Made by a program: the position numbers and the translations under genes. Positions 28,753 through 50,904 of a stretch of DNA of 54,213 bases are shown piece by piece. The notes below the pieces were generated by a model that did no database searches, was not told the DNA's origin, and saw nothing but the letters and a program-made list of their open reading frames with translations. Source of the stretch: Barthelona sp. PAP020 (taxonomy: Eukaryota); assembly GCA_040182905.1 (NCBI GenBank), contig JARQWU010000039.1:1-54213 (forward strand), given 5' to 3'. Numbering within the stretch: position 1 is the stretch's first letter; every line of letters begins with the position of its first letter.

Positions 28753-29940
28753 ATGGAAGTTGAACTTATTGAAGAATTAAAAAGAAGAAAGATTTCAAAT
28801 TTTATTCCATGGAAAATTGACAATGAAACAAAATTAGACAATAGAATTCCTCAATACATATTTGATTGTGCGTATTCTCCAAATGATAAGTATTTTGCAG
28901 TGACAAGTTTTGTAAAAGTATACATATATGAAGTAGAAACCGGAAAGGTTGTTCACATTTTGAATAATCATTGTTCTTCTGTATTTGGTGTTAGTTTTTC
29001 TTCAGATGGACAATTTTTTTCAACTTGCTCAAGTGATTTTCATATTAATGTTTATAAAGTGGAAGATTTCTCCATCTTAACCCAAATGAGAAATGATACA
29101 TGGCTTTACAGTGTTTGTTTTTCTCCTTGCTCCAATTATTTGTATTCTGCAGATTTCAATGGATATGTTAAAAAGTGGAATATAAAAGATTCTAGTGTAA
29201 TTCTTGAATCAAAAATTCATTCTTGGTGGATTTGGTGTATAAAGCTTTCGTCTGATGGTAAGTATCTTTTAACTGGTGGAGGAGACAAAACTGCTAAATT
29301 GATTGATCCAGATAATTTATCTGTTATTCACTCATTTTATCAAGGAGGACATATAAGAAGCGTTGATTTTCATCCAAATGAAGCAATTATTGCTGTCGGA
29401 GATACTTCAAATAATGCCAAACTTTGGAATATTGATGATGGAACACTTATTCACACTTTCCATCTGCAAGGCACCATATTTTGTCTTGAATTTTTATCAG
29501 CTTCATTCTTGATTGTTATGTCTGGTGATGGTTTGATTACTTTATTTAATATAGCTACTCATCAAATGGTACAAAGTGTTAATTGTGGCTGTAATAGTCA
29601 TTTTTTTTCTTTTGCCATATCAAAAAATAAAACCCAATTAATTTGTGGACGCTGTGATGAACATTATATCAAAAAATATTCTGTTGAAAGTTTGTATACT
29701 TCTACTTTTGAATCAGAAGTTTTAAAGTTGGCAAAACCGGATGGTTATGTTGTTTCGATTTTGCTTTCCATGGGTTATGATATTTCTGTTATTCGAAAAT
29801 TAGTGAGTGAAGGCATTTGCCTTAATCAAAATGAATTTGAAACAATTATTGATTCGATAAGCGACTTGGTTGACGTCAATAAAGACAAAAATGGAAATAT
29901 TCATCAATTTCTTGATCTTTATCTGCAAGAAAAACAATAA
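28753..29940 (+). CDS. WD40-repeat protein with shared uncharacterised C-terminal domain
   Basis: About 7 WD repeats (e.g. LSSDGKYLLTGGGDKTAKLID), then SEVLKLAK...DLVDVNKDKNGNIHQF. ATG at 28753. Confidence 0.85.
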   Translation: MEVELIEELKRRKISNFIPWKIDNETKLDNRIPQYIFDCAYSPNDKYFAVTSFVKVYIYEVETGKVVHILNNHCSSVFGVSFSSDGQFFSTCSSDFHINVYKVEDFSILTQMRNDTWLYSVCFSPCSNYLYSADFNGYVKKWNIKDSSVILESKIHSWWIWCIKLSSDGKYLLTGGGDKTAKLIDPDNLSVIHSFYQGGHIRSVDFHPNEAIIAVGDTSNNAKLWNIDDGTLIHTFHLQGTIFCLEFLSASFLIVMSGDGLITLFNIATHQMVQSVNCGCNSHFFSFAISKNKTQLICGRCDEHYIKKYSVESLYTSTFESEVLKLAKPDGYVVSILLSMGYDISVIRKLVSEGICLNQNEFETIIDSISDLVDVNKDKNGNIHQFLDLYLQEKQ

Positions 29941-30133
29941 TAGCAGCATGATCTAATTTCTATGTAAAAATTTTAAACAATTTTCTTTCAAAAATCATAA
30001 ATTGTTTATCCTTTTCAAAAACTTTTTCATTTTTCTAAAAAAAAAATTTAGCCAACAAAAAAGAAAGTATTCAAAAGTTACACCGTTTATATGTTGACTA
30101 AGTGACCAAATGAGAAATAAAATATCTATCTTT

Positions 30134-31105
30134 CTATTGGTTTTCTTCTGTATATGTGTCTTCTTCATCATCATCCAATGCATTTTCATTTGCTATACCA
30201 TCTTTGATTTCTTCAATCAACTGTTGAAACCTTTCGTTGAATGATTGAAGATACTCCTTTGTTTGATCATCCAAATCGCTCATTTTTAAAGCACTATTTA
30301 TTGAAGTCTGTGCAATTTGCAAAATTTCACCAGCATCCTCCCACTTCTTTTGAATTGTGTAAATTGTAGCTAACAATTCAGTAACCTCAAGATCATCAGA
30401 ATTCATTGCCAAAACTTCTTCTAAGACCTCAACAGCAGGCTCTTGTTTCTCTAATTCCATTAAAATTCTGGCTGTTTGCATCAAAAATTGAACATCTGGT
30501 TGTTCATCAATAGGTAATTCTCTCAGAATTTCTACAACTTTGTCCATAATTTCCTCAGCAGAATCAACATCACATTGAGAAATCTTATAAGAAGCTTTAA
30601 TTTGCAAAGCAAACAGGTTTTCAGGATCAATTTCTAAAGCAGTATCAATTGCTTCACCACATTTGGCTTCAGCATCTTCATCAAAACATAAATCGGTTAA
30701 ATACAATTCAGAAACAGCTAATAAAGCTTGAATCAACATTTTCTTATTGTTTTCTTCATACTCTTCATCAATACCTTCTTGCAAAAGTTCAATAGCTTTA
30801 AGATAATGTTCTAAGGATTCATGTTCTTCCAATAATTGTCCCAAATATAAATGTCTGGAAGCTCTTGGCGCCTCAGGTTCTAATTCAATAGCCCTGAGAA
30901 ATAATTCCAAAGCTTCTTCATGAAATCCTAAAGCAAGGATTCCTTCCGCACTGACTTCAATTAAAAAAGCATCATCAGGTTGTAATTCAATGGCTTTCAA
31001 AAAGTGTTCATAGGCTATTTCAAAATTTGGATTGGTACTTCTCATATGATTTTCTGCTATTCTTAAATGTTCGGCAGCACTTCGTTGCTTTTTATTCGTG
31101 GGCAT
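30134..31105 (-). CDS. ACL4: TPR protein, assembly chaperone of RPL4 (ACL4-like)
   Basis: Acidic TPRs, HLYLGQL, ELYLTDLCFDEDAEAKC, acidic tail. ATG at 31105. Confidence 0.8.
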   Translation of the reverse strand: MPTNKKQRSAAEHLRIAENHMRSTNPNFEIAYEHFLKAIELQPDDAFLIEVSAEGILALGFHEEALELFLRAIELEPEAPRASRHLYLGQLLEEHESLEHYLKAIELLQEGIDEEYEENNKKMLIQALLAVSELYLTDLCFDEDAEAKCGEAIDTALEIDPENLFALQIKASYKISQCDVDSAEEIMDKVVEILRELPIDEQPDVQFLMQTARILMELEKQEPAVEVLEEVLAMNSDDLEVTELLATIYTIQKKWEDAGEILQIAQTSINSALKMSDLDDQTKEYLQSFNERFQQLIEEIKDGIANENALDDDEEDTYTEENQ

Positions 31106-31269
31106 TGAAAAAAAATTCAAAAAAATGAATATGATTTTTAGATTTGTTTTTAATGGGTATTTTATTAAGGTGAAAGGACGTTTGACGTTCTAGTAATGAA
31201 ATATATTTATGAAAATTGAATCAAAAATTTCAGATAATATTTTTCACCAAATTATCTTTTATCTTTACA

Positions 31270-32793
31270 ATGTCCAAGAAAGGTGTTAAAGGTAAAATTG
31301 TTCGTCCACAAGAGAAAGAAACTTTCCAAATTGATCCCTGGGTTGATTTTGCTTCATGGTTTGAAAACATCATGTCTTTGGCTGATATTGTTGATAAGAG
31401 ATATCCAGTTAAAGGTATGTATGTATTTAGACCATATGGTTGGTTTATTCATGAAGCTATTATGAGAATGGTTGAAGATGCTTGGATGGAAACCGGTCAT
31501 GAAAAGGTTCAATTTCCTTTAACGATTCCTTGGTCATTTTTAGCACGTGAGGAAGAACACATTGCTGGTTTTGAAAAGCAATGTTTTTGGGTTACCAAGG
31601 GAGGTTTGGAAGAATTACCTGAAAAATTGGCTTTACGTCCCACCTCTGAAACTGCCATGTATAACATGTTTAGTTTATGGGTTCAATCATTCCGTGATTT
31701 CCCTTTGAAAGTTCACCAAACTTGCAGTGTTTTTAGATATGAAACACAAGATACAAAGCCTTTAATTCGTACCCGAGAAATTTTTTGGAATGAAGCACAT
31801 ACTGCCCATGCTACTGCTGATGATGCCTTGGAAACTTTAAGAATTGCCTGGGAAGAATATGATCGTATTTTTGAAAATGATTTATGTGTCAAAGGAATTC
31901 GTTTAAGAAGACCTGAATGGGACAAGTTCAACGGCGCAGAACACACTGATGTTTTGGATGTCTTAATGCCTTGTGGCCGTTGTTTACAAGCTGTTGGTGC
32001 TCATTATTTGGGTCAAAAATTTTCCAAAGTTTTTGACATTAAGTATTTGACTGAAGCCAATGAGTTTGAAAATGCTTACATGACTTGTTATGGTGTTTCT
32101 ACACGTATGATGGCTTCTTGCATTGCTATGAATGGTGATGAAAGAGGTTTGATTCTTCCTCCTAAGTTAGCTCGTTATCAAGCAGTTATCATTCCTATTA
32201 TTAATAAAAAGAGAAAAGATGATGTTTTGGAAGCTTGTACAGCATTAAGTCAACGTTTAAACAAATCAGGTATTAGAACAATATTGGATGATGACACTTC
32301 CAAAAAGCCGGGTGATAAATATTATCATTGGGAAATGAAGGGTGTTCCTATTCGTATTGAAGTTGGACCTCGTGATTTGGATAGCAATCAAGTAATGATG
32401 GTTACTCGTTGTGATAGGCAAAAAAATCCAGTTTCTTTAGATGGTTTAGAAGATACATTAAACGCTGAATTCGTCCGTATTTGTGAAGTAATGAAACAAA
32501 GAAGTTTTGATCTTGAACAAGATAGAGTTGTCAACTGTTCAACAATTGAAGAAATTATTGCTGCAATTGAAAACAAGAAATGGGCCAGATTCCCTTTCCA
32601 TGGAATGGGTTTTGGTGAGAATGGTGAGGATGCAGAAGCTGAATTGAAAGAAAGTTTTATTGGTAAGGATATCAGTGCTCCTGAAGTTAGAGGTTATTGT
32701 CCATTGGAAGAGCAACCTGACTGTGACGACATCACATGTGTTGTTACCGGTAAGAGAGCTAAGTATTATGCTTACGCTGCTCGTTGTTATTAA
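31270..32793 (+). CDS. Prolyl-tRNA synthetase, archaeal-type
   Basis: DKRYPVKGMYV.RPYG, ALRPTSETAMY, FRYE..DTKPLIRTREI, HYLGQKFSK, anticodon-binding domain WEMKGVPIRIEVGPRD, C-terminus ARCY. ATG at 31270. Confidence 0.95.
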   Translation: MSKKGVKGKIVRPQEKETFQIDPWVDFASWFENIMSLADIVDKRYPVKGMYVFRPYGWFIHEAIMRMVEDAWMETGHEKVQFPLTIPWSFLAREEEHIAGFEKQCFWVTKGGLEELPEKLALRPTSETAMYNMFSLWVQSFRDFPLKVHQTCSVFRYETQDTKPLIRTREIFWNEAHTAHATADDALETLRIAWEEYDRIFENDLCVKGIRLRRPEWDKFNGAEHTDVLDVLMPCGRCLQAVGAHYLGQKFSKVFDIKYLTEANEFENAYMTCYGVSTRMMASCIAMNGDERGLILPPKLARYQAVIIPIINKKRKDDVLEACTALSQRLNKSGIRTILDDDTSKKPGDKYYHWEMKGVPIRIEVGPRDLDSNQVMMVTRCDRQKNPVSLDGLEDTLNAEFVRICEVMKQRSFDLEQDRVVNCSTIEEIIAAIENKKWARFPFHGMGFGENGEDAEAELKESFIGKDISAPEVRGYCPLEEQPDCDDITCVVTGKRAKYYAYAARCY

Positions 32794-32871
32794 AGTAAAT
32801 TTGTTCGTTTTTTTTTTGTTCAAAAAATAAAATTTTAAATTATACATTTATGTGCAATATAACTTTATAAA

Positions 32872-34119
32872 TTATTCAATAGTTTGTGTTGTTTCAAAAA
32901 TAGCTTGAGCAACATATTCAACATTCCCGGTATTGAGACCAGAAATTGAAATTCGACCAGAATTTGTCATATAAATACTGTAATTGTCAGCCAAATGACT
33001 AACTTGAGTTGGGGTTAAACCAGTAAATGAAAACATACCAAATTGATCTGTAATGTGATCCCACTTCTTAGGATTAACTTCAGGATTCTTTTCCAATTCT
33101 AATTTCATGATACCATTCTTCAAAGCATTTCTCATTTCAAAAATTCTACCAGACATAATTTTCATTTCATTATTCCAAGAATTAAACAAAGAAACATCCT
33201 TCATGATTTCAGTAATAATTTGAGCTCCATGAATTGGTGGCATAGAATAAGTAGTTCTAGCAATAATGTTAACTTGACTCAAACAAGCTTTTGCTTCTTG
33301 TTCAGAGGAACAAAGAATATATCCAGCACCAATTCTTTCACCATATAACCCCATATTCTTTGAAAAAGATTGACAAATAAAACAAGGACGGTTATGTTCC
33401 AAACTTTCTTCAGCAAACATTCTCAAAACCAAAGCATCTTCATTTAAATCTCCAGAACCAAATCCTTGATAGGCACAATCAATGAAAGGAATAAGATTAT
33501 GTTCAAAAATAACATTCATAATTTGTTTCCATTGGTCAACTGAAGGATCTACACCAGTAGGATTGTGACAAATAGGTTGAATAAGAACAATATTGCCTTC
33601 AGGAATGTTGTTAATATCAGCATACATACCGTCAAAATCTAAAGAACGAGTAGAAGCATCATAATAACGATAGGGATGAATTTGATCATCAGGGAACCTT
33701 TTTTTCAACATGGCAATATGATTAGGCCATGTGGGATCAGAATAGTAAAAATGTTTTTCGGGAGCAAATTTCCTAACGAATTCCATAATGTTAGTCAAAG
33801 CACCAGATCCAGATAGAGATTGAAAAGCGCAAACACGAGGATCTGTAACCAAAGATGAATCCATACCAAACATTACTTTTTTGGCAGCAACCAAATATTC
33901 AGGTTTTCCTTGAATTGGAGGATATTCATGATTGGGATGAGATTTTAATCTTTCCTCAGCTTCAGTAACGCAAGGTAAAACATAAGGTAACCCTTTGTTG
34001 TCTCTGTAGGCGCCAACACCCAAAGAAACTTTTTTTGGATTGGTGTCTGCATTGAATAAAGTATTCAATTTTAAAATACCATCAGGAGGTGCTTGTGAGA
34101 TATTGTTTAGAAAACTCAT
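32872..34119 (-). CDS. Aspartate aminotransferase (class I PLP)
   Basis: KVSLGVGAYRD, HNPTGVD, DCAYQGF, SFSKNMGLYGERIG, GMFSFTGL; no obvious targeting presequence. Confidence 0.95.
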   Translation of the reverse strand: MSFLNNISQAPPDGILKLNTLFNADTNPKKVSLGVGAYRDNKGLPYVLPCVTEAEERLKSHPNHEYPPIQGKPEYLVAAKKVMFGMDSSLVTDPRVCAFQSLSGSGALTNIMEFVRKFAPEKHFYYSDPTWPNHIAMLKKRFPDDQIHPYRYYDASTRSLDFDGMYADINNIPEGNIVLIQPICHNPTGVDPSVDQWKQIMNVIFEHNLIPFIDCAYQGFGSGDLNEDALVLRMFAEESLEHNRPCFICQSFSKNMGLYGERIGAGYILCSSEQEAKACLSQVNIIARTTYSMPPIHGAQIITEIMKDVSLFNSWNNEMKIMSGRIFEMRNALKNGIMKLELEKNPEVNPKKWDHITDQFGMFSFTGLTPTQVSHLADNYSIYMTNSGRISISGLNTGNVEYVAQAIFETTQTIE

Positions 34120-34498
34120 CGAAAAAATAAAAAATCTTTCTTGAATTCAATCAGTGGTTGGGGTAATTCGTTTTGAAAAAAAAAGACTTCATCCCAAATC
34201 CGAAGATGTTTTCCATTCTTTTGTCTTGAATTTAAATAATTTACATTTTTTAACAAACAAATAGCCATATAAAAACAATTGAAAGGAAGTTGAAAAAAAA
34301 AAAAGTCTTCATTATTTTTCTTTGTTATAAATTAAAAATTTTATCAAAAGAGTTGCCAAACATCTAGAGAGAAAAGCAAAACAAAAAAATCAACAGAAAA
34401 AAAAAGTCTTTTTTTTTACTTGAACATCCTGAATGGTTGAAAAATACAAGGGCACAAAATTTTTTTTTAGATCACACAAAATACCAATAAAGAACAGT

Positions 34499-34933
34499 TT
34501 ATTTCAATTGAAGAAATTCAATATATTTTTTACAAACTAGGATGATTTCCGTTTTTTCAACAAAAGGGTGCAATCCACATTCATTAAAATCAGGAAATAA
34601 ATACTGATTTTTCATAAAAATACACAAAAATCCAATAAATTCTTCCATACAGAACTCATTGTTGGAATTTGAAAAGCATTCTGCCAATAATTTATCTATT
34701 TCAGATGTTTCTAACCAAATACATAGAGTTTGTTGACTGATTGTTTCTTCAACAAACTGAAGTTCAAAAAGATGAAATATTGGTATATCTGAAGGATGTC
34801 CATTCTTTTCGAGACAATAAACGTTAATTAATACCTTTAAAAGATCAAAAAGAGGGTTTCCAGGAAAAAAATCTTTGAATAGGTGTTTTTTTTGAGCCAA
34901 AACATTGAAACAATGTTTTCCAAATGAAGACAT
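34499..34933 (-). CDS. Hypothetical protein (144 aa)
   Basis: ATG-initiated ORF flanked by AT-rich intergenic DNA; no recognised motif. Confidence 0.5.
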   Translation of the reverse strand: MSSFGKHCFNVLAQKKHLFKDFFPGNPLFDLLKVLINVYCLEKNGHPSDIPIFHLFELQFVEETISQQTLCIWLETSEIDKLLAECFSNSNNEFCMEEFIGFLCIFMKNQYLFPDFNECGLHPFVEKTEIILVCKKYIEFLQLK

Positions 34934-35166
34934 TGATAATAAAAAACTAATAACAATTGATAAGATTACTGTAAATGTAGAAAAATTAAGAAAATCAATC
35001 TTTCAAAAAAAAAAAAATGCGCAAAGCAATGAACCAAACTCCATCAATTTTAAATATTTACCAATTTAGAACCAAAGAAATCAGAATCGCCAATAAAAAA
35101 AAAATTTGAAAGGAGAAACATTTAATTTTAACATTCATTTTCCTTGCAATTTTCCGATAATATGAC

Positions 35167-37785
35167 ATGAAAGAACTTATATTTATTGTATTTTTGTTTT
35201 GTTTATATATTTGTAAGGGTCAAAATAATATTATTATTGATAATTCTCTCAATATAAATTTGGAGGATAAAATTGAAGGGTACACAATCAACACCACTAG
35301 CAGTGTATGTGGTGTTGGTCAATATTTAAGAAATTCGAATTGTTATTCATGTCTTGAACATTGCACCTGTGCTAATGATTTAATAGTTGTTGATGAAGGA
35401 TATATGGTTTTTGAATTCAGTAAAGTGTTACCATGTATAAATTCTGGTTGTGGATTCAAATACAATGCCACAACATCCAAATTGGATCCACAATGTACAA
35501 ATGGCACAACTGGAGATTATTGTAACATATGTCAAAGAGGGTATTTGAGATTAGAAAATCAATGCGTCAAGCCCAGTATTTCCACTATTTTTATATATCT
35601 AATCGCATGTTTTGCTCTTCCCATAGCTGTGCCATTGTTTTCTTATTTACTCACATTTCGAAACATTAAATGGTTTAGTAGCACTAGATATGCTTTTAAA
35701 TTATCGATTGTTGTTGGTTTTGGATACTATTTCACATCACCCTATTTACAACAGTCTTTTTTACCGATGATACCCAAACATTTTTTGTTAGGCATATTTA
35801 ATGGAGAATTAATGTTATATTTGGGGTTACCATATCAATATGTTGGAGCTACGAGATTATTTGTTGAGTTCTTTTATGTTTTGATTATTTTGATAATTTA
35901 TCTCATCTTGTTCAAGAATCATCGTCATTCATGGTGGCATGCATGTGTAGCTTATATTAATGTGTTTTTGGTGATGGTTCCTCTAGCAAATATGACTAAT
36001 TTTCAAAACTTTGCTTTAATGTTACATGATCCAAACTCAATATCTTACGTTGGGGGTGTTTATATCAGAACTGGAGATTATTCAGATATTGTCTCTATTT
36101 TTAGTGTGATTATTACCACTTTACTTAGTTTAGGAATTGTTGTTTGGATAGCAAGGCTTAACGAATATATATTTGACCATCCTGAATTAGATGATGTTGC
36201 TGGATATTTAACACATGAAGATTCTTCACCTGGAAAATGTAATGGTACTCAATTGACGATGATTTTCTTGTATGGAGTTCCTACATGTTTAACAATACCA
36301 CCAAATGATACCATATATTTTTCTTTAACTGTATTAGGATTATTCATTTTTGCCTTTATTTTTGCTTGGAGAGGGTTCTTCAATGGTAGACATAAAAAAG
36401 CAGATTACTTTGCTTTTACTTTATCATTTATTTCATTATTGGTTACTTTCACATCTAATAATACACCTTGGACACAAAATTCCAAAAAGGTTTTGCATTT
36501 GTGTCTGTTAATTTGCTTTGTTTGCTGGTATTTATTTTGTTTAGTTGATGTTTATGAGTTTAAATCTTTAACTGTAGTTAAATATGTTCAAGAACGAGTT
36601 AATTCAGTATTAAATTTTAAAAGTTCCAAAGAGTCAATAAATAACAAATACTTATTCAAAATTGATCGTAATATAATCATTCCACAAATGATAAACCGAA
36701 ATAAGATAAAGTTTTTAATAAATCTATTTGAAACAACAAAAGTTGAAGCAGAAATGGGTGTACAATTATTGTTATTGTTAAATGACAAGAATCGTAAGAA
36801 GAATAAACCGATTCATTTGGACGGATCTGAAATTTTCAGTTTAGAAAAAGATATAGGTATTGCTTATGATTCCATTGAATCGACTTTAGATCGAATTTTT
36901 CGAGGAAAATATGAAAATTACGATTTGAATTTGATATTGTCTTTGGTTAATATATTAAATAAACCTTCTAATTTATTTATAGAAGAAGATCAATTGATTG
37001 AGAACTTTAAACTAGTACAAAAGTGTAATTTTACTAAATATTCTGATAAAAAATTATTTTTTGATACAATAGAAAAATGTATCACTTTAAAAAGATTATG
37101 GTTTGATGAAAATCTAATTTTTGATAAAGATTTTTATCGTATTGATTTTGTTTGGGCTTGTAAAGCTATATTTTTCATGAGAATAGCACAAATGCAAAAA
37201 TATGCTAAATCAAAGAGATTACAAATGTTTATTGATTATTTAGAATCTATTCAACCAACTGAAATCATTAAAGTAGATAGAATTACTAAGATTTGTATCT
37301 TTAATCAAACTCAAATTGGTGTAGATTATATTCTGCAAAATCAACCATTTATTACTTTCAATGTATTACATAGACCTTTATTATTTTTAAGTAGTTTAGC
37401 TGAAATTACAGGAAGTCCTTTAAGAGGAATAATCCCAAGAAATCATTCTAATATGGATTCCAAATCATTACAATCAATTAATCAATATATAAATAATCTT
37501 TTAGTGGAATTCAATAATGGTGCTAAAAATACAATGAATATTTCATCTGATGAAGAATATCTCATTAAAAATGCTCGTAGAAACAATAAAAGGAATAATT
37601 CTTTGTCTATGTCAAACACAAATTCATCAGATCAAAATGGGTTCTTTTCTATGGCATCCAGAAGTTCAATCAACAGTAGTAAAAACGATCTTGTAGTTGC
37701 TACTAATGATGACATTGAGTATTTCAATGTCAATTATGACAATGAAATGATGGATGCTTTTACTGATTCAGAAACAGATTTGTGA
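35167..37785 (+). CDS. Cys-rich ectodomain, multi-pass membrane protein with long cytosolic tail
   Basis: Signal peptide, CGVGQY...CYSC..C.C, CTNGTTGDYCNICQRGY....QC, then roughly 8-10 hydrophobic segments and a ~400-aa tail. Confidence 0.75.
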   Translation: MKELIFIVFLFCLYICKGQNNIIIDNSLNINLEDKIEGYTINTTSSVCGVGQYLRNSNCYSCLEHCTCANDLIVVDEGYMVFEFSKVLPCINSGCGFKYNATTSKLDPQCTNGTTGDYCNICQRGYLRLENQCVKPSISTIFIYLIACFALPIAVPLFSYLLTFRNIKWFSSTRYAFKLSIVVGFGYYFTSPYLQQSFLPMIPKHFLLGIFNGELMLYLGLPYQYVGATRLFVEFFYVLIILIIYLILFKNHRHSWWHACVAYINVFLVMVPLANMTNFQNFALMLHDPNSISYVGGVYIRTGDYSDIVSIFSVIITTLLSLGIVVWIARLNEYIFDHPELDDVAGYLTHEDSSPGKCNGTQLTMIFLYGVPTCLTIPPNDTIYFSLTVLGLFIFAFIFAWRGFFNGRHKKADYFAFTLSFISLLVTFTSNNTPWTQNSKKVLHLCLLICFVCWYLFCLVDVYEFKSLTVVKYVQERVNSVLNFKSSKESINNKYLFKIDRNIIIPQMINRNKIKFLINLFETTKVEAEMGVQLLLLLNDKNRKKNKPIHLDGSEIFSLEKDIGIAYDSIESTLDRIFRGKYENYDLNLILSLVNILNKPSNLFIEEDQLIENFKLVQKCNFTKYSDKKLFFDTIEKCITLKRLWFDENLIFDKDFYRIDFVWACKAIFFMRIAQMQKYAKSKRLQMFIDYLESIQPTEIIKVDRITKICIFNQTQIGVDYILQNQPFITFNVLHRPLLFLSSLAEITGSPLRGIIPRNHSNMDSKSLQSINQYINNLLVEFNNGAKNTMNISSDEEYLIKNARRNNKRNNSLSMSNTNSSDQNGFFSMASRSSINSSKNDLVVATNDDIEYFNVNYDNEMMDAFTDSETDL

Positions 37786-38112
37786 TTTTTTTTTTTTTTT
37801 CAAAGAAATTTCACTGACACAAACAACCAAATAAAGAAATAAATTAACGTCTTTTTTTTTGTTTTTTTCATTTAAATCGATTTAAGTGTCAATTTAGATA
37901 TTAAGATTTCACCTTTAATTGCTTTGGTCTGCATCATTTTATCAAAACTATTTTTTGCAAAGGTTGCCCTTACAGCAAACAAAAAAATTTCTTTTTTATT
38001 TCATGTTTTCAACAAAAAAAAAAAAATAATCAAGTGAAATAAATGTTTTATCCAGCTTCCAACTAATTTAAAAAATTAAAATTGGTGGTGTCCTAATGAA
38101 AATTGAGCCAAA

Positions 38113-38775
38113 TTAGCAAAGACGCACAGCGGTACGGTTTTCAGTCTTAAATTGAGTTGACTTAATATGAACAGTGTCAATATTTTGCCATTTCTTCTTA
38201 AGGAGAGAAACAAGATAGTTAATAGAACGTAAAATGTTACTGACAGCTTGTTCTTCAGTAAGATTCATGTTACCAACAGCGGTGTGAAGACCGAAAGTCT
38301 TACGGAGAGTGAAGTTAACAGTCTTATTAACAGCATCAACCTTGGAAGCAATTTGAGCAGGGTTAGGAACGGGGGTAGGATACTTATGAGCACGATTGAA
38401 CATGGAACCACAGTATTTTCTGATATCCTTGGCCATAGAAGGAGCCATGAAGAAAACATCAGCAGATTTGATGAGTTTCTTGACTTCCTTGTTGTCCTTA
38501 AGAGCCTTTAAATCATCAACAGTAATGTGTCTGATATTATTGGCAGCACAAACTTGAGCCAAACGGGCATCAGCGATAACACAAACAGGAGTGTTCAATT
38601 TAACATCATTTTGCAATTGAACGGATCCACTGAAACGCTTATCCTTCTTTTCATAACCCTTAAGTTGAACTTGAAGTTCAATTGTTTCAACGAATCTATG
38701 GTACTTCTTGTTCTTATAGACTTCATAAATTTCATGAACGGCTTCACGGACTTGATCGCTAGAGATCTTGGACAT
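38113..38775 (-). CDS. RPL10A: 60S ribosomal protein L10a (uL1)
   Basis: FVETIELQV.LKGY..KDKRFSGSVQL, AVGN, NYLVSLLKKKWQNI; strong codon bias. Confidence 0.95.
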   Translation of the reverse strand: MSKISSDQVREAVHEIYEVYKNKKYHRFVETIELQVQLKGYEKKDKRFSGSVQLQNDVKLNTPVCVIADARLAQVCAANNIRHITVDDLKALKDNKEVKKLIKSADVFFMAPSMAKDIRKYCGSMFNRAHKYPTPVPNPAQIASKVDAVNKTVNFTLRKTFGLHTAVGNMNLTEEQAVSNILRSINYLVSLLKKKWQNIDTVHIKSTQFKTENRTAVRLC

Positions 38776-38878
38776 TTAATTCAACGGAAAATTGGAATTG
38801 AAAAGGAATAAAAAATAACAAAAAATTTATAAAAAATTTTCAACTTCCTTCCTCAACTTTTTTTAGTTATATAACAAA

Positions 38879-39352
38879 ATGGTTTGTGATTATGTGCGAT
38901 TCTATTTTAATCAACATCAACATGAGATTTAACGCCTTTATTTACTATTTTTATTTTGATCAAATTCTAATATTTAGGGTGGTGTTCGTACAAGAACTAT
39001 CAAGCGCGCTGCTAAAGCTATTATTGAAAAACATTATCCTAAGCTTACTACTGATTTCGAAACAAACAAGAAACTTATCGATACTGTTGCACAAATTCCC
39101 ACCAAGCGTCTTCGCAATAAAATTGCCGGTTATACTACTCATCTTATGGTTCGTCTTCGTCAAGGACCTGTTCGTGGTATTTCTTTCAAGCTTCAAGAAG
39201 AAGAACGTGAACGTTTAGATAACTATGTTCCTGAAATCAGTAAGATTCATGTCGGTGATGATGTTACTATTAATGTCAACCAAACCACCATGAACATGCT
39301 TGAAGCTTTGGAATATCAAGTTCCCGGTGTTAGAGTTTCTGGTCGTAAGTAA
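38879..39352 (+). CDS. RPS17: 40S ribosomal protein S17 (eS17); exons 38879-38881 and 38978-39352; 125 aa
   Basis: The spliced product is [21 protein letters not shown]...[16 protein letters not shown]...[23 protein letters not shown]. Confidence 0.95.
38882..38977 (+). other. Spliceosomal intron (96 nt) directly after the RPS17 start codon
   Basis: GTTTGT...TTCTAATATTTAG; removal restores the eS17 N-terminus. Confidence 0.9.
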
Positions 39353-39460
39353 GTATTTAATTTTGATGACTTTAAATAAACGCTTGCCCATTTATTCTTT
39401 TTTTTTTTTAGTTTGATTTCAAAATCTTCAAATAATAAAAGAGAAACACATTTACATATT

Positions 39461-41422: not shown

Positions 41423-42080
41423 ATCATCTTTTGTGAATGTTGAAAAAAAAAAGGTTGATTAAATCAAAGATTTATTGATTGTTGAATTGAAAGTAATTAA
41501 TTTCTTTTTACAATGATAATATTTTCAATAATAGCATAAATAACTCAAACAAATCTTCTGAGACAACTGCAAATTCTTCCTTTTTTTCATTCTCTTTTGA
41601 TTAATTTTATCCCTTCTTCGTAATTTTGGACAAAAATATTTGAAGAATGTCTCATAATATTTGTTTTAATTTTAGTCTTCTTTTATTTGCAATCCTTTTG
41701 TATTTATTCAAATAAATTGCCTGTAAATTGATAAATAACTTGTGCAAAAGACTTAAAATAGAGTAAATTTTGTTTTGGGATGTTTTGATTTTTTTTGTCA
41801 GAAATTTCACCCTCTTAATGCCTTTGAAAATATATACATGAGAATGAATAAATAAGTGCTGAAAATATCATGAATTTTCCAAATTAGTGGAACTGCTCAA
41901 AAATTTGATTAACTCTTTTCTTTTTTACAATATAAAAACGCAAATCATTAACCTTTTTATGCAATAATTCATCAAACAAGAAAAAAGTTCAACAACAAAA
42001 ATGAGCTCCTGAAAAATGATTTTTCAAAAAAGAAAAATCTTTTTTTTTAATTATATCTTGATGTTTATGGGCACTTAAAG

Positions 42081-43190
42081 ATGAATTTTAGTCAGATTAA
42101 CGGAAACACAATACAATTAAATGACACTTTTTCCAAAATGTCAATGATTAATATAACTTCAAATGAAATGAAAAATAATCGCACTAATGTGACCATAAAC
42201 AATGTTGATTTACCAATAAATCATGAATTTATTCATAGTAACAGTAATGTACCTTCTTTTCGATTTGGGTCAACCCAAAAATCTAATTCTTCTCAAAGTT
42301 TAAAGAAAGGAAAATCCAATGAAAAAGTATCAATAAAAGAAACTCTTTTCAATAAAAAAATGAAAGAACCTCGTCGAAAAAAAAAATCTTCAGTTTCAAA
42401 GAATGATTTTGAAACCACCCCAAAAAAACAAAACAATGTAAATGATATTGACACTAATATTGCAACAAAAAGATATTTAACTTCATTGAAGAGAAAAAGA
42501 CCTGAAACTTCTCAAAGTTTTCGACGGTCAAACGAATTTCAACCAAGATATAGTTCTTTTGATAGTAATTCCTCGAGTAGCAGAGAAAATTCGTCAAATT
42601 TTTCCAAAATCAATTCAGATGTTGCAGAATTAAAAAGTTGGTTGAATGAACAATTAGTTGAGTTAAAAGCAAGAGACACCCAACCATGTCCAATTCGTTT
42701 GAATATTTTCCGGGAATTATTTGCGAAAGTGATTGAAAAAGCTGGTGAATGGGCTCCATTATTAACATTGATAAAGAATGAATATGATTCCATATATAGT
42801 ATGAACAGTTCAACCATAACACAAAATTCAATTGATTTTGATGATTTTTGTGAAAAATCAAGCACTGAAACAGAAAATTTGAACTGTGAAATTTCAAAAC
42901 TAAATTTTAAGATTAGGTCGCTTCAACAGAGTATTAAAACCAAAGATGCACAAATTAAACAATTGCAATCAGAAAATACTCGTTATAAAACTGTTGAAAC
43001 AATGGAAAATTATCACATTGAATCCACTAATCATTTTACATCAAAACAATTGTTGAAAGAAACAGAAATCTCAATTTTAGATGATAATAATGATGATGAT
43101 GTTCATATTGACATGGACAACTCAATCGACTTTGATTCACAGTCTTTCAAAGAACAATATGAAAGAATATCTACAATCATGAACATGTAA
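42081..43190 (+). CDS. Coiled-coil protein with TSNAXIP1_N-like domain
   Basis: LKSWLNEQL...RLNIFRELF..VI......PLL..IKNEYD resembles the TSNAXIP1/C6orf118 N-terminal domain. Confidence 0.65.
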   Translation: MNFSQINGNTIQLNDTFSKMSMINITSNEMKNNRTNVTINNVDLPINHEFIHSNSNVPSFRFGSTQKSNSSQSLKKGKSNEKVSIKETLFNKKMKEPRRKKKSSVSKNDFETTPKKQNNVNDIDTNIATKRYLTSLKRKRPETSQSFRRSNEFQPRYSSFDSNSSSSRENSSNFSKINSDVAELKSWLNEQLVELKARDTQPCPIRLNIFRELFAKVIEKAGEWAPLLTLIKNEYDSIYSMNSSTITQNSIDFDDFCEKSSTETENLNCEISKLNFKIRSLQQSIKTKDAQIKQLQSENTRYKTVETMENYHIESTNHFTSKQLLKETEISILDDNNDDDVHIDMDNSIDFDSQSFKEQYERISTIMNM

Positions 43191-43407
43191 ACAATTGTCA
43201 TCAACAATAAACATTCAAACTATATGGTATCCATTGCTCGTTGTTTTAAATGGAATGTAATTTATTATATTAAGGGAAATTTGTAAATAAAAAGAGACAT
43301 CTGTCATTTGTTTCATTGTTTTTTTATTTGTTAATTGTTGCAATAGTTAATTAGATTTGTTGGAGATTTAAGTTTTGTGTGATTTTCTTTTATTTTGGTA
43401 ATGTGTG

Positions 43408-44409
43408 ATGGTTTTTAAAATCAAACAGTACTTATTGGATCCACTAGATGGAAATATTTTAGATAATCCAGTTACAATTTGTTTTGAACCAAATTTTAGA
43501 TTTTCATCAAATAATCTTAATGATTTCGAGTTTTCCCCTACAAGTAACCGTAAGTTTTTGTTTTCAAGAGATGTTTATCCTGATTTAATGTTAAAGAATA
43601 TCATTGATGCTCTATTCATAAAAAACAATGAAGAGGAAGAGAACTTCATTCTATATAATTCAATAGTTAAAGGATATGAACATATAGTTGAATATTTATT
43701 GAAAATAAAAGGATTAAATCCTAATAAAGGGCCAAATGTTTCACCATTGACTTTTGCTGTTTCAAAAAATTATCTATCAATGGTAAAACTGTTATTAACA
43801 TTTGGAGCTGATATCGAATATGATAATGGTAATGGTATTACACCGTTAGCTGTTGCTTTACAATGTAACCAAGAAGAATCAGCGTTTCTTTTAATAGACA
43901 GTGGTGCTGATATTTTTAAAACAAATAAAGACAATTGTACAATGTTGCATTATGCCTCTTTTTCAAATAATGTCAATTTAGTGAGGAGATTATTAGAATT
44001 GCATGTTGATCCCAATTTAAAAACAAAAGATGATGTATTACCTTTACATATGGCTTCATCTGGTGATTCTGTAGAGGTTGTTAAAATGTTGTGTGAAAAT
44101 ACTGAAGATCCATTGGTCAGAGATCGAATCAATGATGCTAATGCTTTAATCATTGCTTCAAGTGAGGGTAGTTTCGAAATTTTTAAATATTTATTGGAAA
44201 AGGGTTTTGATCCCAATTCCACTGATAATAATGGATTTTCTGTTATTATGCATTGTGCTATGGGTAATTTTATGGAGAAAATTAAATATTTGTTGGAAAA
44301 CTATGAAGTTGATTTGAAATTAAGAAGTGTTGATGATGAAACTGTTCTGGATATATGTGTAGATATGAATTTAACAGAGATTCAAAGACACATTCAAAAG
44401 TTTTTTTGA
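43408..44409 (+). CDS. Ankyrin-repeat protein (divergent repeats; lacks the shared C-terminal domain)
   Basis: SPLTFAV, TPLAVAL, TMLHYAS, LPLHMAS and NALIIAS ankyrin units. Confidence 0.85.
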   Translation: MVFKIKQYLLDPLDGNILDNPVTICFEPNFRFSSNNLNDFEFSPTSNRKFLFSRDVYPDLMLKNIIDALFIKNNEEEENFILYNSIVKGYEHIVEYLLKIKGLNPNKGPNVSPLTFAVSKNYLSMVKLLLTFGADIEYDNGNGITPLAVALQCNQEESAFLLIDSGADIFKTNKDNCTMLHYASFSNNVNLVRRLLELHVDPNLKTKDDVLPLHMASSGDSVEVVKMLCENTEDPLVRDRINDANALIIASSEGSFEIFKYLLEKGFDPNSTDNNGFSVIMHCAMGNFMEKIKYLLENYEVDLKLRSVDDETVLDICVDMNLTEIQRHIQKFF

Positions 44410-44806
44410 AATTGATAGTGTTTTTCCCCTTTCATTTATTTGTTTAAGGTTGTTTAAGGTTGTAATTAATTGTTTATAAACTTCAGCAGGATCTTGATTT
44501 GTGATTTTCACTCAATAAAGCAGGATTTTCCTTTTTTGTTCAAATTTTTTTTTTTCGATTCTCATCAATTCAAAAAATAAAAAGTTTTGCCCCAGGAAAA
44601 AGTTTGTCTTTTTTTCATATGATGTTCTGTGCGCCTTTTACGAAAGAGAAAAGAAGATTATTGTGGATATTTTTTTGAATATCATTTATAACAAAAGATT
44701 TTACCACAAAGAGAAAAAGAAAAAAATGTTCAAAAGATAAAAATCTTAAAGACTTTGTGTAAACATTTTTTTTTCGATCAAAACTGATCTAAAGTGTTGT
44801 TTTACA

Positions 44807-45544
44807 ATGAAAATAGTATTTATAACAATACCATTGTTGATTTTATTGTCTTTAACGTTTGCAAAGCCTTCTACTGTTTCTTTGTACATGAATAATCCTT
44901 TTCAATCCAGTTATAATTTTCTTAATAATGAATACGGCAATGATGTCGTTGATAACCAGTTATTGACAACATATTCGGACATGAATTTTGGATTTATTCA
45001 TGCCAATTTAACTTTTGGATTTATGACTTATAAAGGATTATCTACTTTGGCATATGTTCATGACATGGGTCACAGATTTGATGTAGCTCATAAATACAAT
45101 ATTTCTGAGAGTAACAGAGGGGGTGAAACATTTGCTGCCTTTAATATTGGGGCTGGTGCGTTATTTGTTGGTAATACCAATATTACTGCTGATTTACCTC
45201 ATTTATTTAACAATAAAATTGGGTCTCCCATAAGGAACATCAGTCCCAAAATCAACCATATTTATATTGGTCGTGTGTATTCATTAAACTATGCCAGGGA
45301 TATCTTTTTTAAGTTACAAATTATCGATTATCAAAAAGAATCAAATGTAGTATTGATTTGTGATGTTTTATATGCTGGTAGTTCTTGGATATCGCCAAGT
45401 ACTCTTGGAATTATTGTTTTAGTCTTAGCTGTTGTACTTTCGTTATTTGTTGCCAAATTTTATTGTGATTGTGGTAATCGTTCCAGAGGTCGCATGGAAG
45501 AATTTGCTCCCTTAAACAGTTCTCGGGTAGAATGGAATGCTTAA
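44807..45544 (+). CDS. Predicted type I membrane protein of unknown function
   Basis: Signal peptide, ~175-aa ectodomain, TM LGIIVLVLAVVLSLFVA, Cys-containing juxtamembrane tail. Confidence 0.75.
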   Translation: MKIVFITIPLLILLSLTFAKPSTVSLYMNNPFQSSYNFLNNEYGNDVVDNQLLTTYSDMNFGFIHANLTFGFMTYKGLSTLAYVHDMGHRFDVAHKYNISESNRGGETFAAFNIGAGALFVGNTNITADLPHLFNNKIGSPIRNISPKINHIYIGRVYSLNYARDIFFKLQIIDYQKESNVVLICDVLYAGSSWISPSTLGIIVLVLAVVLSLFVAKFYCDCGNRSRGRMEEFAPLNSSRVEWNA

Positions 45545-45707
45545 TTGTATATGTATATATTTAAAGTAAAAACATACATCAACATATATTTACTTTTGAC
45601 GTTTCGAATTTCTGTATTAATAAAATCAAAACAAATTTTTCTTTTTTGAGCAGTTGCAAGCTTTTATTGATTAACCTACCGAGTTCTAAAACCAAGAAGT
45701 TTTGTGT

Positions 45708-46817
45708 ATGTCTGTTGAATCTACTGAATTGTTCAAACGAGAAACTATTATTAATGCATTTAATTGGGAAGTTGATGTAAACTTCATGAATGAAATTGAA
45801 GATGTTATTCAACTGATTTAAATGATTGTGGATATTCAACAAATGGTGAACTTTTTTTTACTTGCAGCAATAAAGAAGTGAATATAATTGATACAAAAAA
45901 TAATAAACTACTTTCCATTTTGCGTCATCATAAACACAATGTTTTGAATATTGCTTTTTCTCCAAACGAACAAATGTTTGCCGCATGTTCACTGATAAAC
46001 ACATCATTATATGCAGCTTAATAGATTTCTCCATCATATGTGGATTGATTAATGACACCTATGTAAATGGAATTTGTTTTTCCCATTGTTCTAATCATAT
46101 GTATTTTGGTGATGAAAGTGGTGACAAAGATGTTGTGTTTGAGACCAAAATTCACAATGAACAAATTTGCAAATTGAAGCTATCATTGGACGGCAAATAT
46201 TTATTGACTTGGAGTTCAGACAAAACTGCAAAACTGATCAATCCTAAAAATTTTTCAGTTTTTTGTTCAATTAGACAGGACGCGGTAATTTTTAGCATTG
46301 ATTTGAATTCTACTGGTAGTTTTATTGCTATTGATGACAAAGGGAAAAAGTTAAGCTTTGGGATATGAAAGGACACCTTGTTAAAGTATTCAATATGGAG
46401 AACTATGTATTTTGTGTTCGTTTTATGACTTCAAACATACTGTTTATTATAACTAATGGAGGTAATATTGCTTCATATAATTTACTTAGCCTTCATGAAA
46501 CACAAAAAAAAATTTTCGATTTTGATCGTTTTTCGACAATTTTTTCTTTTGCAATATCACGCAATTTTGATAAACATTCCGAACTCATTGCCTTATTAAA
46601 GGAAGGAGGTAACGTTGTATCAAATCTCATTTCTTTGGGGGTAAGTTCTTCGAAAATTCGACATTTACTAACTTTATATATTTGTTTAAATCAAAATGAA
46701 TACAGCTTGATCCTTGATACATGTTGAGATTTGATTGACCTGAATGAACAAAATGGAGGAAACATGTATGAGTTTATCGATGTGGAAAATGTCCAAACAA
46801 GTGATTGTGATGATTAG
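45708..46817 (+). pseudogene. Disrupted paralog of the WD40 + C-terminal-domain gene at 28753
   Basis: MSVESTELFKRETIINAFNWEVD aligns with MEVELIEELKRRKISNFIPWKID, followed by DCGYSTNGE and LSLDGKYLLTWSSDKTAKLINP. Frameshifts near 45810, 45990 and 46350, two internal deletions, and an in-frame TGA at 46725 (C*DLIDLNEQNGGNM). Ends at TAG 46817. Confidence 0.85.
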
Positions 46818-47446
46818 AAAAGAATGTTACCTTTTTTCAATCCTTCATTATTATTTTTCTGAGTTTTTTTTTTTTTTTCTGTATCTCTTTTTTTTAAAGA
46901 ATTGTTGGTAAATGGATTTGAGCACCCGTCCTCTTTTAATTTACAAAGAAATAATAAAGCGCTTAGTATTTTTGATTTGTATTCATTCACGTCTGATTTT
47001 GCTACAGTACACGAAACACTGTGCAAAAGACCAATAAAAAAGAAGATAAAATTTTTCTAATGCTTTTCGAGGATTAAACATCGGAATTTATGAGAGAATT
47101 TGTTGAAATATTTGTAAATAATAAACCTCCTTCTCAATCTCAATTAATAGTTTTATTGGGTAATATGTCAATTTGCGAGCTTTAATTCATCTATTTTTCT
47201 TTAATATATTCAATTTTGGAAATTTTATGATGTGGAAGAGTCTTAACGAATTTTTTTCCTAAAAACAAAAGATAAAACAGTAATTTTCTCACAATTATCT
47301 ACCTGAAATAAAAATTTTAGTTGTTTTTTTCAATTTGCCAGAATGGGTTTGTTCAATCTCAATCTTTTTTGGACAAAATGAGAGTTCTTTGAAACTGGAA
47401 TTATCCTATTTAATCGACCAATTTGAGCCACTCACCATGCCTAAAT

Positions 47447-47685
47447 TTGGTCGAGTTGTGAAACAACTATCTTTATTTACAAAGAAAAAGCAACCAAAGA
47501 AAGCTCTTTTCCTTAAATCTCAGCCAAAAAATGTGTAACTGTAATTGAATCTTGCTCAAGTATGAAAATTTTGGAAAAAATTTCTATTCCTATTTTTTTG
47601 TATCTTTACAAAAGCAAAATTTTAAAGTTTGAGTTTTGTCTTAGAAAATCTAAAGTTTTTCAATAGATCAATCGGGCCTCGAAAG
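47447..47685 (-). repeat. Degenerate repeat, inverted copy of 51140-51390
   Basis: Reverse complement CTTTCGAGGCCCGATTGATCTATTGAAAAACTTTAGATTTTC...TAGTTGTTTCACAACTCGACCAA matches 51140 onward. Confidence 0.8.
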
Positions 47686-47695
47686 TCTTTAACAT

Positions 47696-47781
47696 TTATT
47701 TCCAAGCCAAGAAGTACTGTGCGTATGGTGAATAGAAAAGAATAGTGTTTATTTGGTCAAAAGCTTTCGAAGCCTGATTGA
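47696..47781 (+). repeat. Direct copy of 51072-51157
   Basis: TTATTTCCAAGCCAAGAAG.A.TGTGCGTATG...GCTTTCGA.GCC.GATTGA occurs at both sites. Confidence 0.8.
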
Positions 47782-47837
47782 ACATTCAATTCACGTTAGG
47801 TACAAGAAAAGGTATACGAAAGCTTTTATATACGGTG

Positions 47838-47928
47838 NNNNNNNNNNNNNNNNNNNNNNNNNNNNNNNNNNNNNNNNNNNNNNNNNNNNNNNNNNNNNNN
47901 NNNNNNNNNNNNNNNNNNNNNNNNNNNN
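47838..47928. other. Assembly gap (91 N)
   Basis: Run of N. Confidence 1.
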
Positions 47929-49034
47929 AATCCCTAAAAAAAAAAAAAGAAATGACTTCAATAACTTTGGATAGAAAATTTGATTAAGGAAATTCAGACA
48001 ATGGTTGAAAATTTTGGGAAAATTTCTTTTGTAATCTTTCAAGATTCTTTATTAGCCAGTGAAATTAGATTCTTCTTTGTCTTAAGCTCAACTAGTTGTT
48101 TTATTATTTGAAAAATTCTGAAATACGAGAATTTTTGCTTGATTCAAATTCTGGCGCATTTCTTCACGCTTTTCTTTTTCCCTCCTTGTGAAATGCCCAC
48201 TACGCTACACAATTCTCCAAAAGTTAAAATTAAAACTGGATAATTTTGCTTTTGTCAAATCCAAAAAGGAAACAAGGACAAGAAGCTCTTTCTCAATGAC
48301 GCAACTTAGACCATACAACAGAATTTCAGTTTGGATCTCACACCATGAATTTTGACGGAAATTCACAGAAATGACTTTTTGGTTTGTTTTCTCTGCAAAC
48401 AAGTTTATGTCACCACTACACCAAAGTCTCATGCCACTTATATCTTTTCTTTTTGTTACAATACCGATTGTTGGAGTCCAACACAACAAGAACAAAAGAC
48501 AATTACAAATGATGTTGCTTTCATTTATTTACTTTGAAAGTTGTTACACAATACCAACGTTGGAGACTCTCATGAAGAAGAAAAAAAAAGTTTCTTCGAT
48601 TTAAGAAACAAGAGAAAATTTGACGGATAAATATCGCACAGTTGCAAGTTCAATTTGTGAATTTCGTGAGTAAAAATATGTCAATAGCATCATTACATCA
48701 ACAAATCTGAAAAAATAAATTGGAACAATGTCTTTTGTTTGAAAAATTCGAACAAACATCATTATGACAAACTTTCATAATTGTGCGACATTTTCACAAT
48801 GTTTAAATTAATATCGTAAGTTCAATTCGCTGCATCAATTCGAAAAAGGAAATCTCAAGAAAGAATAAAATTATATTGTAAAGAGTTCTCCACAAACCAG
48901 TCAATCAATTAACAAATTTCATTTTGCCAACAACCAAATTAAATTAATGCCTGATTTGAGGGATAAATATTGAATATCCAAAGAGAAATGATAAATTTGG
49001 AGGATCAAATTTTTTTTTTTTTTCTTTGTCGACA

Positions 49035-50543
49035 ATGGTTGTTAACACTGTAGTTGAGGAAACTGACCCTTATGTTAAGTACAACATGGATCAAGTTGTT
49101 GTTCCAGATGGGTTTGATGTGGATGGATTTGAAGATAATGGTCGTCCAAAGAAGATCTTTTTTGCAGCATGTGATGGTAATCTTGAGGTTGTCAAGCAGT
49201 GTATCAAAGCTGGCGTTGATGTGAACAAACAAGGCAAGGAAGGAAGGACACCGTTGTATGGAGCTTGTTTTAATGGGCAAATTGAAGTTGTTGGGTTTTT
49301 GTTGGATTATGGCGCTGATGTTCATTTGAGTATGAATGACGGTGCCTCTCCATTGTACATCAGTTGTCAAAATGGTCATTTTGATGTTGCCAAAATGCTC
49401 TTAGATCATGGAGCTGATGTTAATTTGTGTAATAATAATGGTATTTCTCCATTGTCCATCAGTTGTCAAAAAGGTCATTTTGATGTTGCCAAAATGCTCT
49501 TAGATCATGGAGCTGATGTTAATTTGTGTAATAATAATGGTATTTCTCCATTGTCCATCAGTTGTGAAAATGGTCTTCTTGATGTTGCCAAAATGCTCTT
49601 AGATCATGGAACTGATGTTAATTTGTGTGATAATGATGGTTATTCTCCATTATTTGTCAGTTGTCAAAATGGTCATCTTAATGTTGCCAAAATGCTCTTA
49701 GATCATGGAGCAGATGTTAATTTGTGTATGAAAACTAATCTTTCTCCATTGTACATCAGTTGTCAAAATGGTCATCTTGATGTTGCTAAAATGCTCTTGG
49801 ATCATGGAGCTGATGCCAATCAATGTACTAAAGATGGTGCTTCTCCATTGTACATCAGTTGTCAAAATGGTCATCTTGATGTTGCCAAAATGCTTTTGGA
49901 TCATGAAGCTGATGCCAATCAATGTACTGAAGATGGTGTTTCTCCATTGTACATTAGTTGTCAAAAAGGCTATCTTGATGTTGCCAGAATGCTCTTGGAT
50001 TATGGAGCTGATGTTAATTTGTGTAGGGACGGTGGATTTTCTCCATTGTATGTCAGTTGTCTACAAGGTCATCTTGATGTTGCCAAGATGCTTCTAGATT
50101 GTCCCGAAATAAACATATATGGTGAAGATATGCTGTTATTTTTCAACATATTGTATACAAATGAATGGGAAAAAATCCAATACAGAATTTTGAGCTGTCC
50201 CAATTTAAAACAACAATTGAAGAGTGGCGAGTCTGTTGATTTGAAATTTGCGCATGTGTCCAAATCCGAGTTGATTGAATTGGTGAAGGATAAGGGCTAT
50301 CTTTTATCAACACTTGTTGCAATGAAGGTAGACAGTGTCATCATCCGAGAATTTGTCAGTACTGGAGTTTACATGAATCAAAGAGATTTTGACATGTCAA
50401 TCAACTTATGTTGGGATTTGATTGACATCAATGAAAGGAATGGTGGTAATATGCGTCAGTATATGAAGATTAAAAAGGTCTTTTTTGTGGTAACATGTTT
50501 ATTCCATTTATGTTTTGTGGATATTTTCTTCACATATAAATAA
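49035..50543 (+). CDS. Ankyrin-repeat protein (~10 repeats) with shared uncharacterised C-terminal domain
   Basis: Two divergent plus eight near-identical ankyrin units, a linker, then SELIELVK...CWDLIDINERNGGNMRQYM. ATG at 49035. Confidence 0.9.
   Translation: MVVNTVVEETDPYVKYNMDQVVVPDGFDVDGFEDNGRPKKIFFAACDGNLEVVKQCIKAGVDVNKQGKEGRTPLYGACFNGQIEVVGFLLDYGADVHLSMNDGASPLYISCQNGHFDVAKMLLDHGADVNLCNNNGISPLSISCQKGHFDVAKMLLDHGADVNLCNNNGISPLSISCENGLLDVAKMLLDHGTDVNLCDNDGYSPLFVSCQNGHLNVAKMLLDHGADVNLCMKTNLSPLYISCQNGHLDVAKMLLDHGADANQCTKDGASPLYISCQNGHLDVAKMLLDHEADANQCTEDGVSPLYISCQKGYLDVARMLLDYGADVNLCRDGGFSPLYVSCLQGHLDVAKMLLDCPEINIYGEDMLLFFNILYTNEWEKIQYRILSCPNLKQQLKSGESVDLKFAHVSKSELIELVKDKGYLLSTLVAMKVDSVIIREFVSTGVYMNQRDFDMSINLCWDLIDINERNGGNMRQYMKIKKVFFVVTCLFHLCFVDIFFTYK
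49347..50100 (+). repeat. Eight tandem 99-bp ankyrin-coding units
   Basis: TCTCCATT recurs at 49347, 49446, 49545, 49644, 49743, 49842, 49941 and 50040. Confidence 0.95.
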
Positions 50544-50904
50544 TAGTTTATTCTTTTTTTGATATAGTCTCTGGTAAAGGTTTTTTACTAATTGAGTGAT
50601 TTGAAGAGGGCTTGGAATGTTTCATTTGGGGCGCTTTAACTTCACATAGAACTTCTTCTTTCATTCAATACAAAACTCAGATTCTTTGTCTAAGAAATAG
50701 AATATACCTTGTTGGACAATTACTTTATAAAAACAAAAGAGCAGTTGCTTTATTGTATTGTTTTGTAATTGTTAAACAGTTCATCATGACATTTTTGTCA
50801 TGCTATTTAATAACAAAGGTAATGTGCTACAAATCTCTTTTAGAATGATCAAAACCAATATTTCTATGCTGCTCTCTTCAATTTTTAATTTTCAAAAAAG
50901 AAAG

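Follow-up and report, generated by a model that had tools for sequence, protein, structure and literature searches.

We describe a C-terminal domain of about 70 residues, referred to here as the tail, that is shared by WD40 and ankyrin-repeat proteins encoded on a stretch of DNA from Barthelona sp. PAP020 (contig JARQWU010000039.1 of assembly GCA_040182905.1, positions 1 to 54,213, forward strand; this whole stretch of 54,213 nucleotides is called the window). The tail is a real, lineage-restricted and portable domain, apparently undescribed, that occurs in a known kind of architecture and is predicted to fold into five helices. The tail family is expanded and transcribed, as seen from paralogue transcripts, was detected in one lineage only, and shows both gene birth and gene decay within the window. 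Its position and conservation suggest that the tail probably serves as a docking module for a partner common to all its carriers.

Tail copies in the window

The window contains exactly four copies of the tail, and a six-frame scan with a hidden Markov model returned no fifth. A preliminary description, made from the sequence alone, had listed these four as ungapped segments of about 67 residues, and the translations match. The first copy (29713..29913, +) ends an intact, single-exon gene for a WD40 (beta-propeller) protein (28753..29940, +; an open reading frame of 395 residues from the first ATG, Pfam WD40 E 5.8e-27) and scores 84 bits against the family profile, of which this sequence is itself a part. 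The second (50265..50465, +) follows a linker in an open ankyrin-repeat reading frame (49026..50543, +, first ATG at 49035, Pfam ankyrin; here the right ankyrin gene) and has all invariant residues of the family. The third (1..198, -) belongs to a left ankyrin gene (1..806, -) that is a recent duplicate of the right one (88% identity over 771 nucleotides), is frameshifted near nucleotide 277, in the linker between repeats and tail, and is truncated where it leaves the window. The fourth (46578..46778, +) lies in a WD40 pseudogene (45803..46817, +) that consists of pieces in three frames with a deletion before the tail; a TGA at 46725-46727 interrupts the tail in frame, at the site of the conserved Trp of the family, and the acidic end is kept. 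The N-terminal parts are unrelated folds, ankyrin and WD40 according to Pfam, as had been claimed.

The tail of the right ankyrin gene and that of the intact WD40 gene share 26 of 67 residues in an ungapped alignment, the same number as in the earlier hand count, whereas 10,000 shuffled controls averaged 4.7 and never exceeded 13. The corresponding values are 27/67 for the right ankyrin tail and the pseudogene tail, and 31/67 for the two WD40 tails. The two ankyrin tails, described before as near-identical, agree in 65/66 residues and 195/198 nucleotides (98.5%), compared with 260/306 nucleotides (85%) over the final three repeats that align between the genes; they count as one recent duplicate, and therefore three independent versions of the tail are present in the window.

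Both intact genes have diverged paralogues in the transcriptome: the WD40 protein is 46% identical over 355 residues to P0020, and the product of the right ankyrin gene is 49% identical over 267 residues to P0014. The WD40 tail is atypical, with Ile-Ser in place of the Cys found in 34/39 tails and the Trp found in 36/39, without one Gly of the NGGN motif and without the acidic end. The right ankyrin protein has about 10 repeats, with a near-identical scaffold in 8. In the ankyrin repeats of the window this scaffold is nearly invariant and the unit positions 1, 3, 11, 12, 32 and 33 take 4 to 8 different residues; we take these positions to be the ankyrin binding face, which is randomised in designed ankyrin proteins. 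The protein ends in a hydrophobic extension of 25 residues (50466-50543, +), at a place where P0014 has a short acidic end, and since another frame of the gene stops shortly past the tail, this hydrophobic end may result from a recent frameshift.

Relatives beyond the window

A profile built from three window tails was searched against 1.84 billion cluster representatives (E 0.001) and recovered 38 matches, of which 37 are true relatives; the remaining one (P0045), a bacterial-type PPR/NB-ARC protein matched via its repeats, was dropped as a false positive. The number of 37 is a floor, given that the clusters are made at 50% identity and the records are transcriptome-derived. The source was looked up for 10 of the 37, a choice that included the most divergent, and was the Barthelona sp. 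PAP020 transcriptome in every case; three more relatives and one further member bear EukProt Trinity names that show no organism. No relative from another organism appeared among the representatives, a library from which the proteomes of sister lineages are perhaps missing. A word-index protein search with the 39-row tail alignment found 7 proteins, all EukProt Trinity records; the same search with the window tails alone was too insensitive and found nothing, though relatives exist. DNA scans with a 3-row alignment recovered no relative from viral, metagenome or prokaryote contigs, and a CWDL-motif pattern gave 0 matches in viral contigs. The searches support the preliminary description in its proposal of an expanded family, which was detected in one lineage only.

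The Pfam architectures of the 37 relatives comprise 29 WD40/propeller proteins, 2 ankyrin proteins, 1 armadillo protein with an importin-alpha-like solenoid (E 5.5e-08), 2 fragments and 3 proteins without a match at E 0.01, so that listing the fused N-terminal domains extends the unrelated recognition folds from two to three (WD40, ankyrin and armadillo). The tail is C-terminal in 37/37, with the conserved Trp-Asp-Leu within 43 residues of the end, and an acidic end (≥ 5 Asp or Glu in the last 12 residues) is found in 30/38 members versus 2/23 other open reading frames of the window. Three unrelated carrier folds require at least two transfers of the tail. The tail tree, which is largely without resolution, does not allow the transfers between folds to be counted: only 2/36 forks are firmly supported, the two ankyrin tails group together (99/90), and the tails of the armadillo carrier and of P0041 are placed away from this pair without firm support.

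Some carriers, all of them Barthelona-type transcriptome proteins, are unusual in their front part. These are P0027, the carrier with the importin-alpha-like solenoid, and P0048 and P0049, which are about 900 residues long and have no clear family match. P0041 is an ankyrin carrier of 998 residues with a front that looks like a degenerate kinase by eye; in Pfam and PDB searches this protein gave matches to its ankyrin repeats only.

Conservation and predicted fold of the tail

Conservation was counted on the 39-row tail alignment (some counts below are on 38 tails). Seven residues are invariant (R34, G40, D57, L58, N62, G67 and N68) and three nearly so (C55 in 34/39, W56 in 36/39 and F72 in 33/39), and together they give the signature IR-x-LV-xx-G ... 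CWDL-x-D-x-NE-x-NGGNM-xx-F. In a set of 25 WD40 members, pairwise identity averages 30% for the propeller and 43% for the tail, with 51% in the C-terminal core of the tail and 31% in its N-terminal half. AlphaFold, run on the 39-row alignment with the right ankyrin copy as the modelled sequence, produced a confident model (predicted local distance difference test, pLDDT, 91.9; predicted template modelling score, pTM, 0.79) with five helices at positions 6-12, 19-25, 30-38, 45-64 and 69-72.

The tail was not assigned to a known family or fold. Pfam, NCBIfam, PHROGs and PADLOC contained no family above cut-off, with single weak matches at most, in agreement with the earlier statement that the domain is unannotated. 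The family profile found nothing credible in PDB, and ESM Atlas gave no usable match for two tails. Neither did the confident model find a convincing counterpart among described domains: Foldseek gave a best E of 3.1 in PDB and of 2.2 in BFVD (viral structures), and VIA-align a best Z of 3.9 (root mean square deviation 3.5, 72 aligned residues), with no Z ≥ 5 among 48,161 chains; the absence of a fold match does not by itself show a new fold. UBA, SOCS-box, VHL-box, F-box, EF-hand and death-fold chains were absent from the best 50 fold matches, which does not exclude a family beyond these 50. Two candidates were rejected. A likeness to AAA+ lid domains (Z up to 7.3) came from a first model made with 3 rows (pLDDT 62) and was gone with the confident model, and a match to ribosomal protein L9 (E 0.007) was lost once the family profile was used.

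No description of the tail domain was found in literature listings and abstracts. The main text of the genome paper on this group of organisms (PMC11316075), in the form available, does not contain the terms 'WD40', 'ubiquitin' or 'expan', and five of its supplements do not mention cullin, Skp1, elongin, WD40 or ankyrin; an unread supplementary PDF and a scanned file might mention the family.

The tail as a candidate docking module

That the tail docks its carriers on a common partner is probable because three unrelated folds all have this small domain at their C-terminus and are themselves less conserved than it is. The variable repeat parts would bind targets and the constant tail would connect every carrier to the same partner. 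The most likely partner is the scaffold of a ubiquitin ligase, or its adaptor, and anything bound by the repeats would then be tagged. For a ubiquitin ligase as the partner we estimate the overall chances as about even. The best precedents are the WSB/ASB SOCS-box and poxviral ANK-PRANC substrate receptors, which according to excerpts of PMC3355856 and PMC4353913 consist of a repeat domain and a C-terminal box. If a cullin takes part, the contact would have to be made by a non-canonical box, because the standard motifs are absent.

This absence is one of several observations that weigh against docking on a ligase. The strict BC box ((S,T,P)LxxxC/S/AxxxPhi, the consensus in the part of PMC3355856 consulted) occurs in 0/39 tails, the Cul5 box (LP-Phi-P) in 0/39 and the Cul2 box (Phi-P-xx-Phi-xxx-Phi), both sought after the BC box, in 3/39; the 39 tails have no F-box, PRANC or SOCS match in Pfam at E 1, and an F-box core pattern occurs in 0/38. 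Of the SOCS-box and PRANC likeness proposed in the preliminary description, the C-terminal box behind repeats therefore stands and the family membership does not. In favour of a ligase, 26/39 tails have a BC-box-like pattern in relaxed form (hydrophobic-x3-C/S/A-x3-hydrophobic) around C55, at positions 51-59; against it, this site never has Leu at position 0 (0/39), is preceded by S/T/P in 5/39, and starts six residues into a predicted helix of 20 residues and not at the helix start. Look-ups for Elongin C, Skp1 and cullins in Barthelona gave nothing, so that their presence is not established. On the side of the genes, two of the four window copies are broken (the left ankyrin gene and the WD40 pseudogene), both intact genes lack the acidic end that most family members have, and the window's own tail proteins did not turn up in the transcriptome, in searches that included no exact look-up of the ankyrin form from the first ATG. 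At the variable ankyrin positions the ratio of non-synonymous to synonymous changes (pN/pS) is 1.28, versus 0.35 elsewhere (9 repeats); this is weak evidence and only suggestive, because the positions were picked after their variation was seen.

Elongin C and Skp1 were encountered elsewhere. A contig from a giant-virus metagenome-assembled genome (L001) encodes, at 136-636 (+), an Elongin C homologue with an N-terminal extension of about 70 residues, and Skp1-like proteins are encoded on L002, L005 and L008.

Comparison with known systems places the tail proteins beside several receptor families and apart from each of them. Like the SOCS-box receptors WSB1/2 (WD40) and ASB (ankyrin) of Elongin BC-Cul5 and the VHL-box receptors of Cul2, as described in excerpts of PMC3355856 and PMC10591846, they have the repeat domain first and a small helical box last, and as with the SOCS box one box is common to WD40 and ankyrin carriers. 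The tail differs in its length (about 70 versus about 40 residues), in the lack of a strict BC box or an LP-x-P Cul5 box, in its own CWDL-x-D-x-N-x3-GGN signature and acidic end, and in having been detected in one lineage only. The Barthelona ankyrin members share with the poxviral and rickettsial ANK-PRANC proteins (C-terminal F-box-like module; PMC4353913, seen in part) the order of ankyrin repeats, linker and C-terminal helical module as well as the occurrence in multiple copies; the tail family in contrast lacks a PRANC/F-box Pfam match, has mostly WD40 carriers, is encoded by cellular genes of a free-living protist and showed no relative in the viral contigs or viral structures searched. 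The fungal NOD-like receptors (NLRs) with internally conserved WD40 or ankyrin repeats (according to the abstract of PMC13449251) resemble the window ankyrin genes in their near-identical repeats with a variable face and in the turnover of the family, whereas the Barthelona family has no NACHT/NB-ARC core, has its constant module at the C-terminus and has WD40 blades that are not near-identical.

Alternative explanations

The tail could act without a ligase, as a self-associating signalling or effector module that is clustered when a ligand binds the repeats and then triggers defence, in the manner of death-fold or TIR domains in immune receptors. The combination of a variable repeat part with a constant small helical domain, the near-identical ankyrin scaffolds with a variable face, and the gene birth and decay in the window would all suit such a module, which we nevertheless consider rather unlikely: the 37 relatives have no NACHT/NB-ARC or other switch domain among their best Pfam families, and Pfam found no NACHT/NB-ARC domain in the window proteins either; the tail has no Pfam match to death-fold or TIR families, and its acidic C-terminal end would disfavour close packing of tails. 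In a further reading, which is quite unlikely, the tail has no shared partner at all: it would cap or stabilise the proteins of a single WD40 family, would have reached other genes by recombination and would be drifting. WD40-type proteins are indeed 29 of the 37 relatives, and of the four window copies two are broken and the other two deviate; against such drift, the tail is more conserved than its propeller, is predicted to fold confidently alone, and has the same seven invariant residues on its ankyrin and armadillo carriers, for which a propeller cap would be of no use.

The preliminary description had also pointed to a UBA-like stretch (LLSMGYD..IR), and the tail might accordingly be a strongly diverged, ubiquitin-binding UBA of the IAP type, with carriers that are ubiquitin readers or shuttles. 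What remains of this hint is a weak Pfam likeness, since UBA_BIRC2-3 is matched by 3/39 tails (best E 0.047, best score 14 bits against a cut-off of 27 bits), together with a stretch of 45 residues over which the window WD40 tail aligns without gaps to the UBA of XIAP (PDB 2kna, E 0.47). A few tails thus have a helix spacing similar to that of the UBA of XIAP and BIRC2/3 (Pfam PF21290) over about 45 residues, at scores that stay sub-threshold. The 'MGY' is not a family feature, however, as few parts of the tail are less conserved than the M-G-F/Y loop (1/39 strict, 4/39 relaxed), the family profile draws no UBA from PDB at E 10, and the tail has two helices more than a UBA as well as a conserved NGGN loop, with its best-conserved motif (N62-N68) beyond the UBA-like stretch; we therefore regard a UBA as very unlikely. 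Equally improbable is a reading in which the conserved Cys, Asp, Asn and Arg form the site of a very small module for catalysis or for the binding of a metal or ligand. Its appeal lies in the mostly polar invariant residues (R34, D57, N62 and N68) and in C55, present in 34/39, and it is opposed by the replacement of this Cys by Val, Ile or Ser in 5/39 tails, the intact window WD40 copy included, by the absence of a canonical EF-hand loop of 12 residues (0/38 tails), and by the AlphaFold model, which allows the polar residues to be interpreted as helix caps and a salt bridge. Docking on a common partner is the reading that we prefer, and the earlier interpretation as a whole is partly supported.

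Window setting and neighbouring features

The window is AT-rich, gene-dense and intron-poor eukaryotic DNA, and it also encodes housekeeping genes and an axonemal-type dynein heavy chain; the latter, typed by eye, is a single open reading frame of 4278 codons at 935-13771 (-). EukProt contains 9 of the 16 non-family window proteins that were looked up, letter for letter, and one protein falls into a cluster, at 98% identity, with a Barthelona sp. PAP020 record. A third ankyrin gene (43405-44409, +) has no tail domain, and its protein is present in EukProt.

Non-coding repeats at 47443-47781 and 50884-51687 flank the right ankyrin gene, are 70-81% identical and occur in direct and inverted orientation; together with an inverted repeat of 53 bp (51978-52030 and 52385-52437, 94% identical), they are possibly the remains of a mobile element linked to the duplication of this gene. 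A tRNA-Gly(TCC) gene (51835-51905, +) lies 1.3 kb downstream of the right ankyrin gene. A run of N at 47838-47928, an assembly gap, separates the WD40 pseudogene from the right ankyrin gene, and assembly errors could be a partial cause of the frameshifts in the repeated genes.

Implications

In animals, plants and viruses, receptor repertoires are known that pair a variable repeat domain with a constant box. For free-living anaerobic protists, the recognition and disposal of foreign or damaged proteins are, to our knowledge, nearly unexplored. Barthelonids are free-living anaerobic metamonads, and a ligase or defence role of the tail proteins is one that we infer from their architecture. It is conceivable, though doubtful, that barthelonids invented an adaptor box of their own with a new fold, independent of the F-, SOCS- and VHL-boxes, and that on this box rests a large repertoire of receptors (WD40, ankyrin and armadillo proteins) with rapid turnover. 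Such receptors would hand over foreign proteins, be they of prey bacteria, symbionts or viruses, to one common machine for destruction or defence, and a deep-branching anaerobic protist would then possess a receptor system of innate immunity. An adaptor box that has a signature of its own and lacks a structural match would add a new member to the ligase or signalling adaptors, and the tail offers a single handle by which one pull-down could reveal the machine. That dozens of divergent, transcribed members are kept in a lineage with a compact genome suggests that their function matters.

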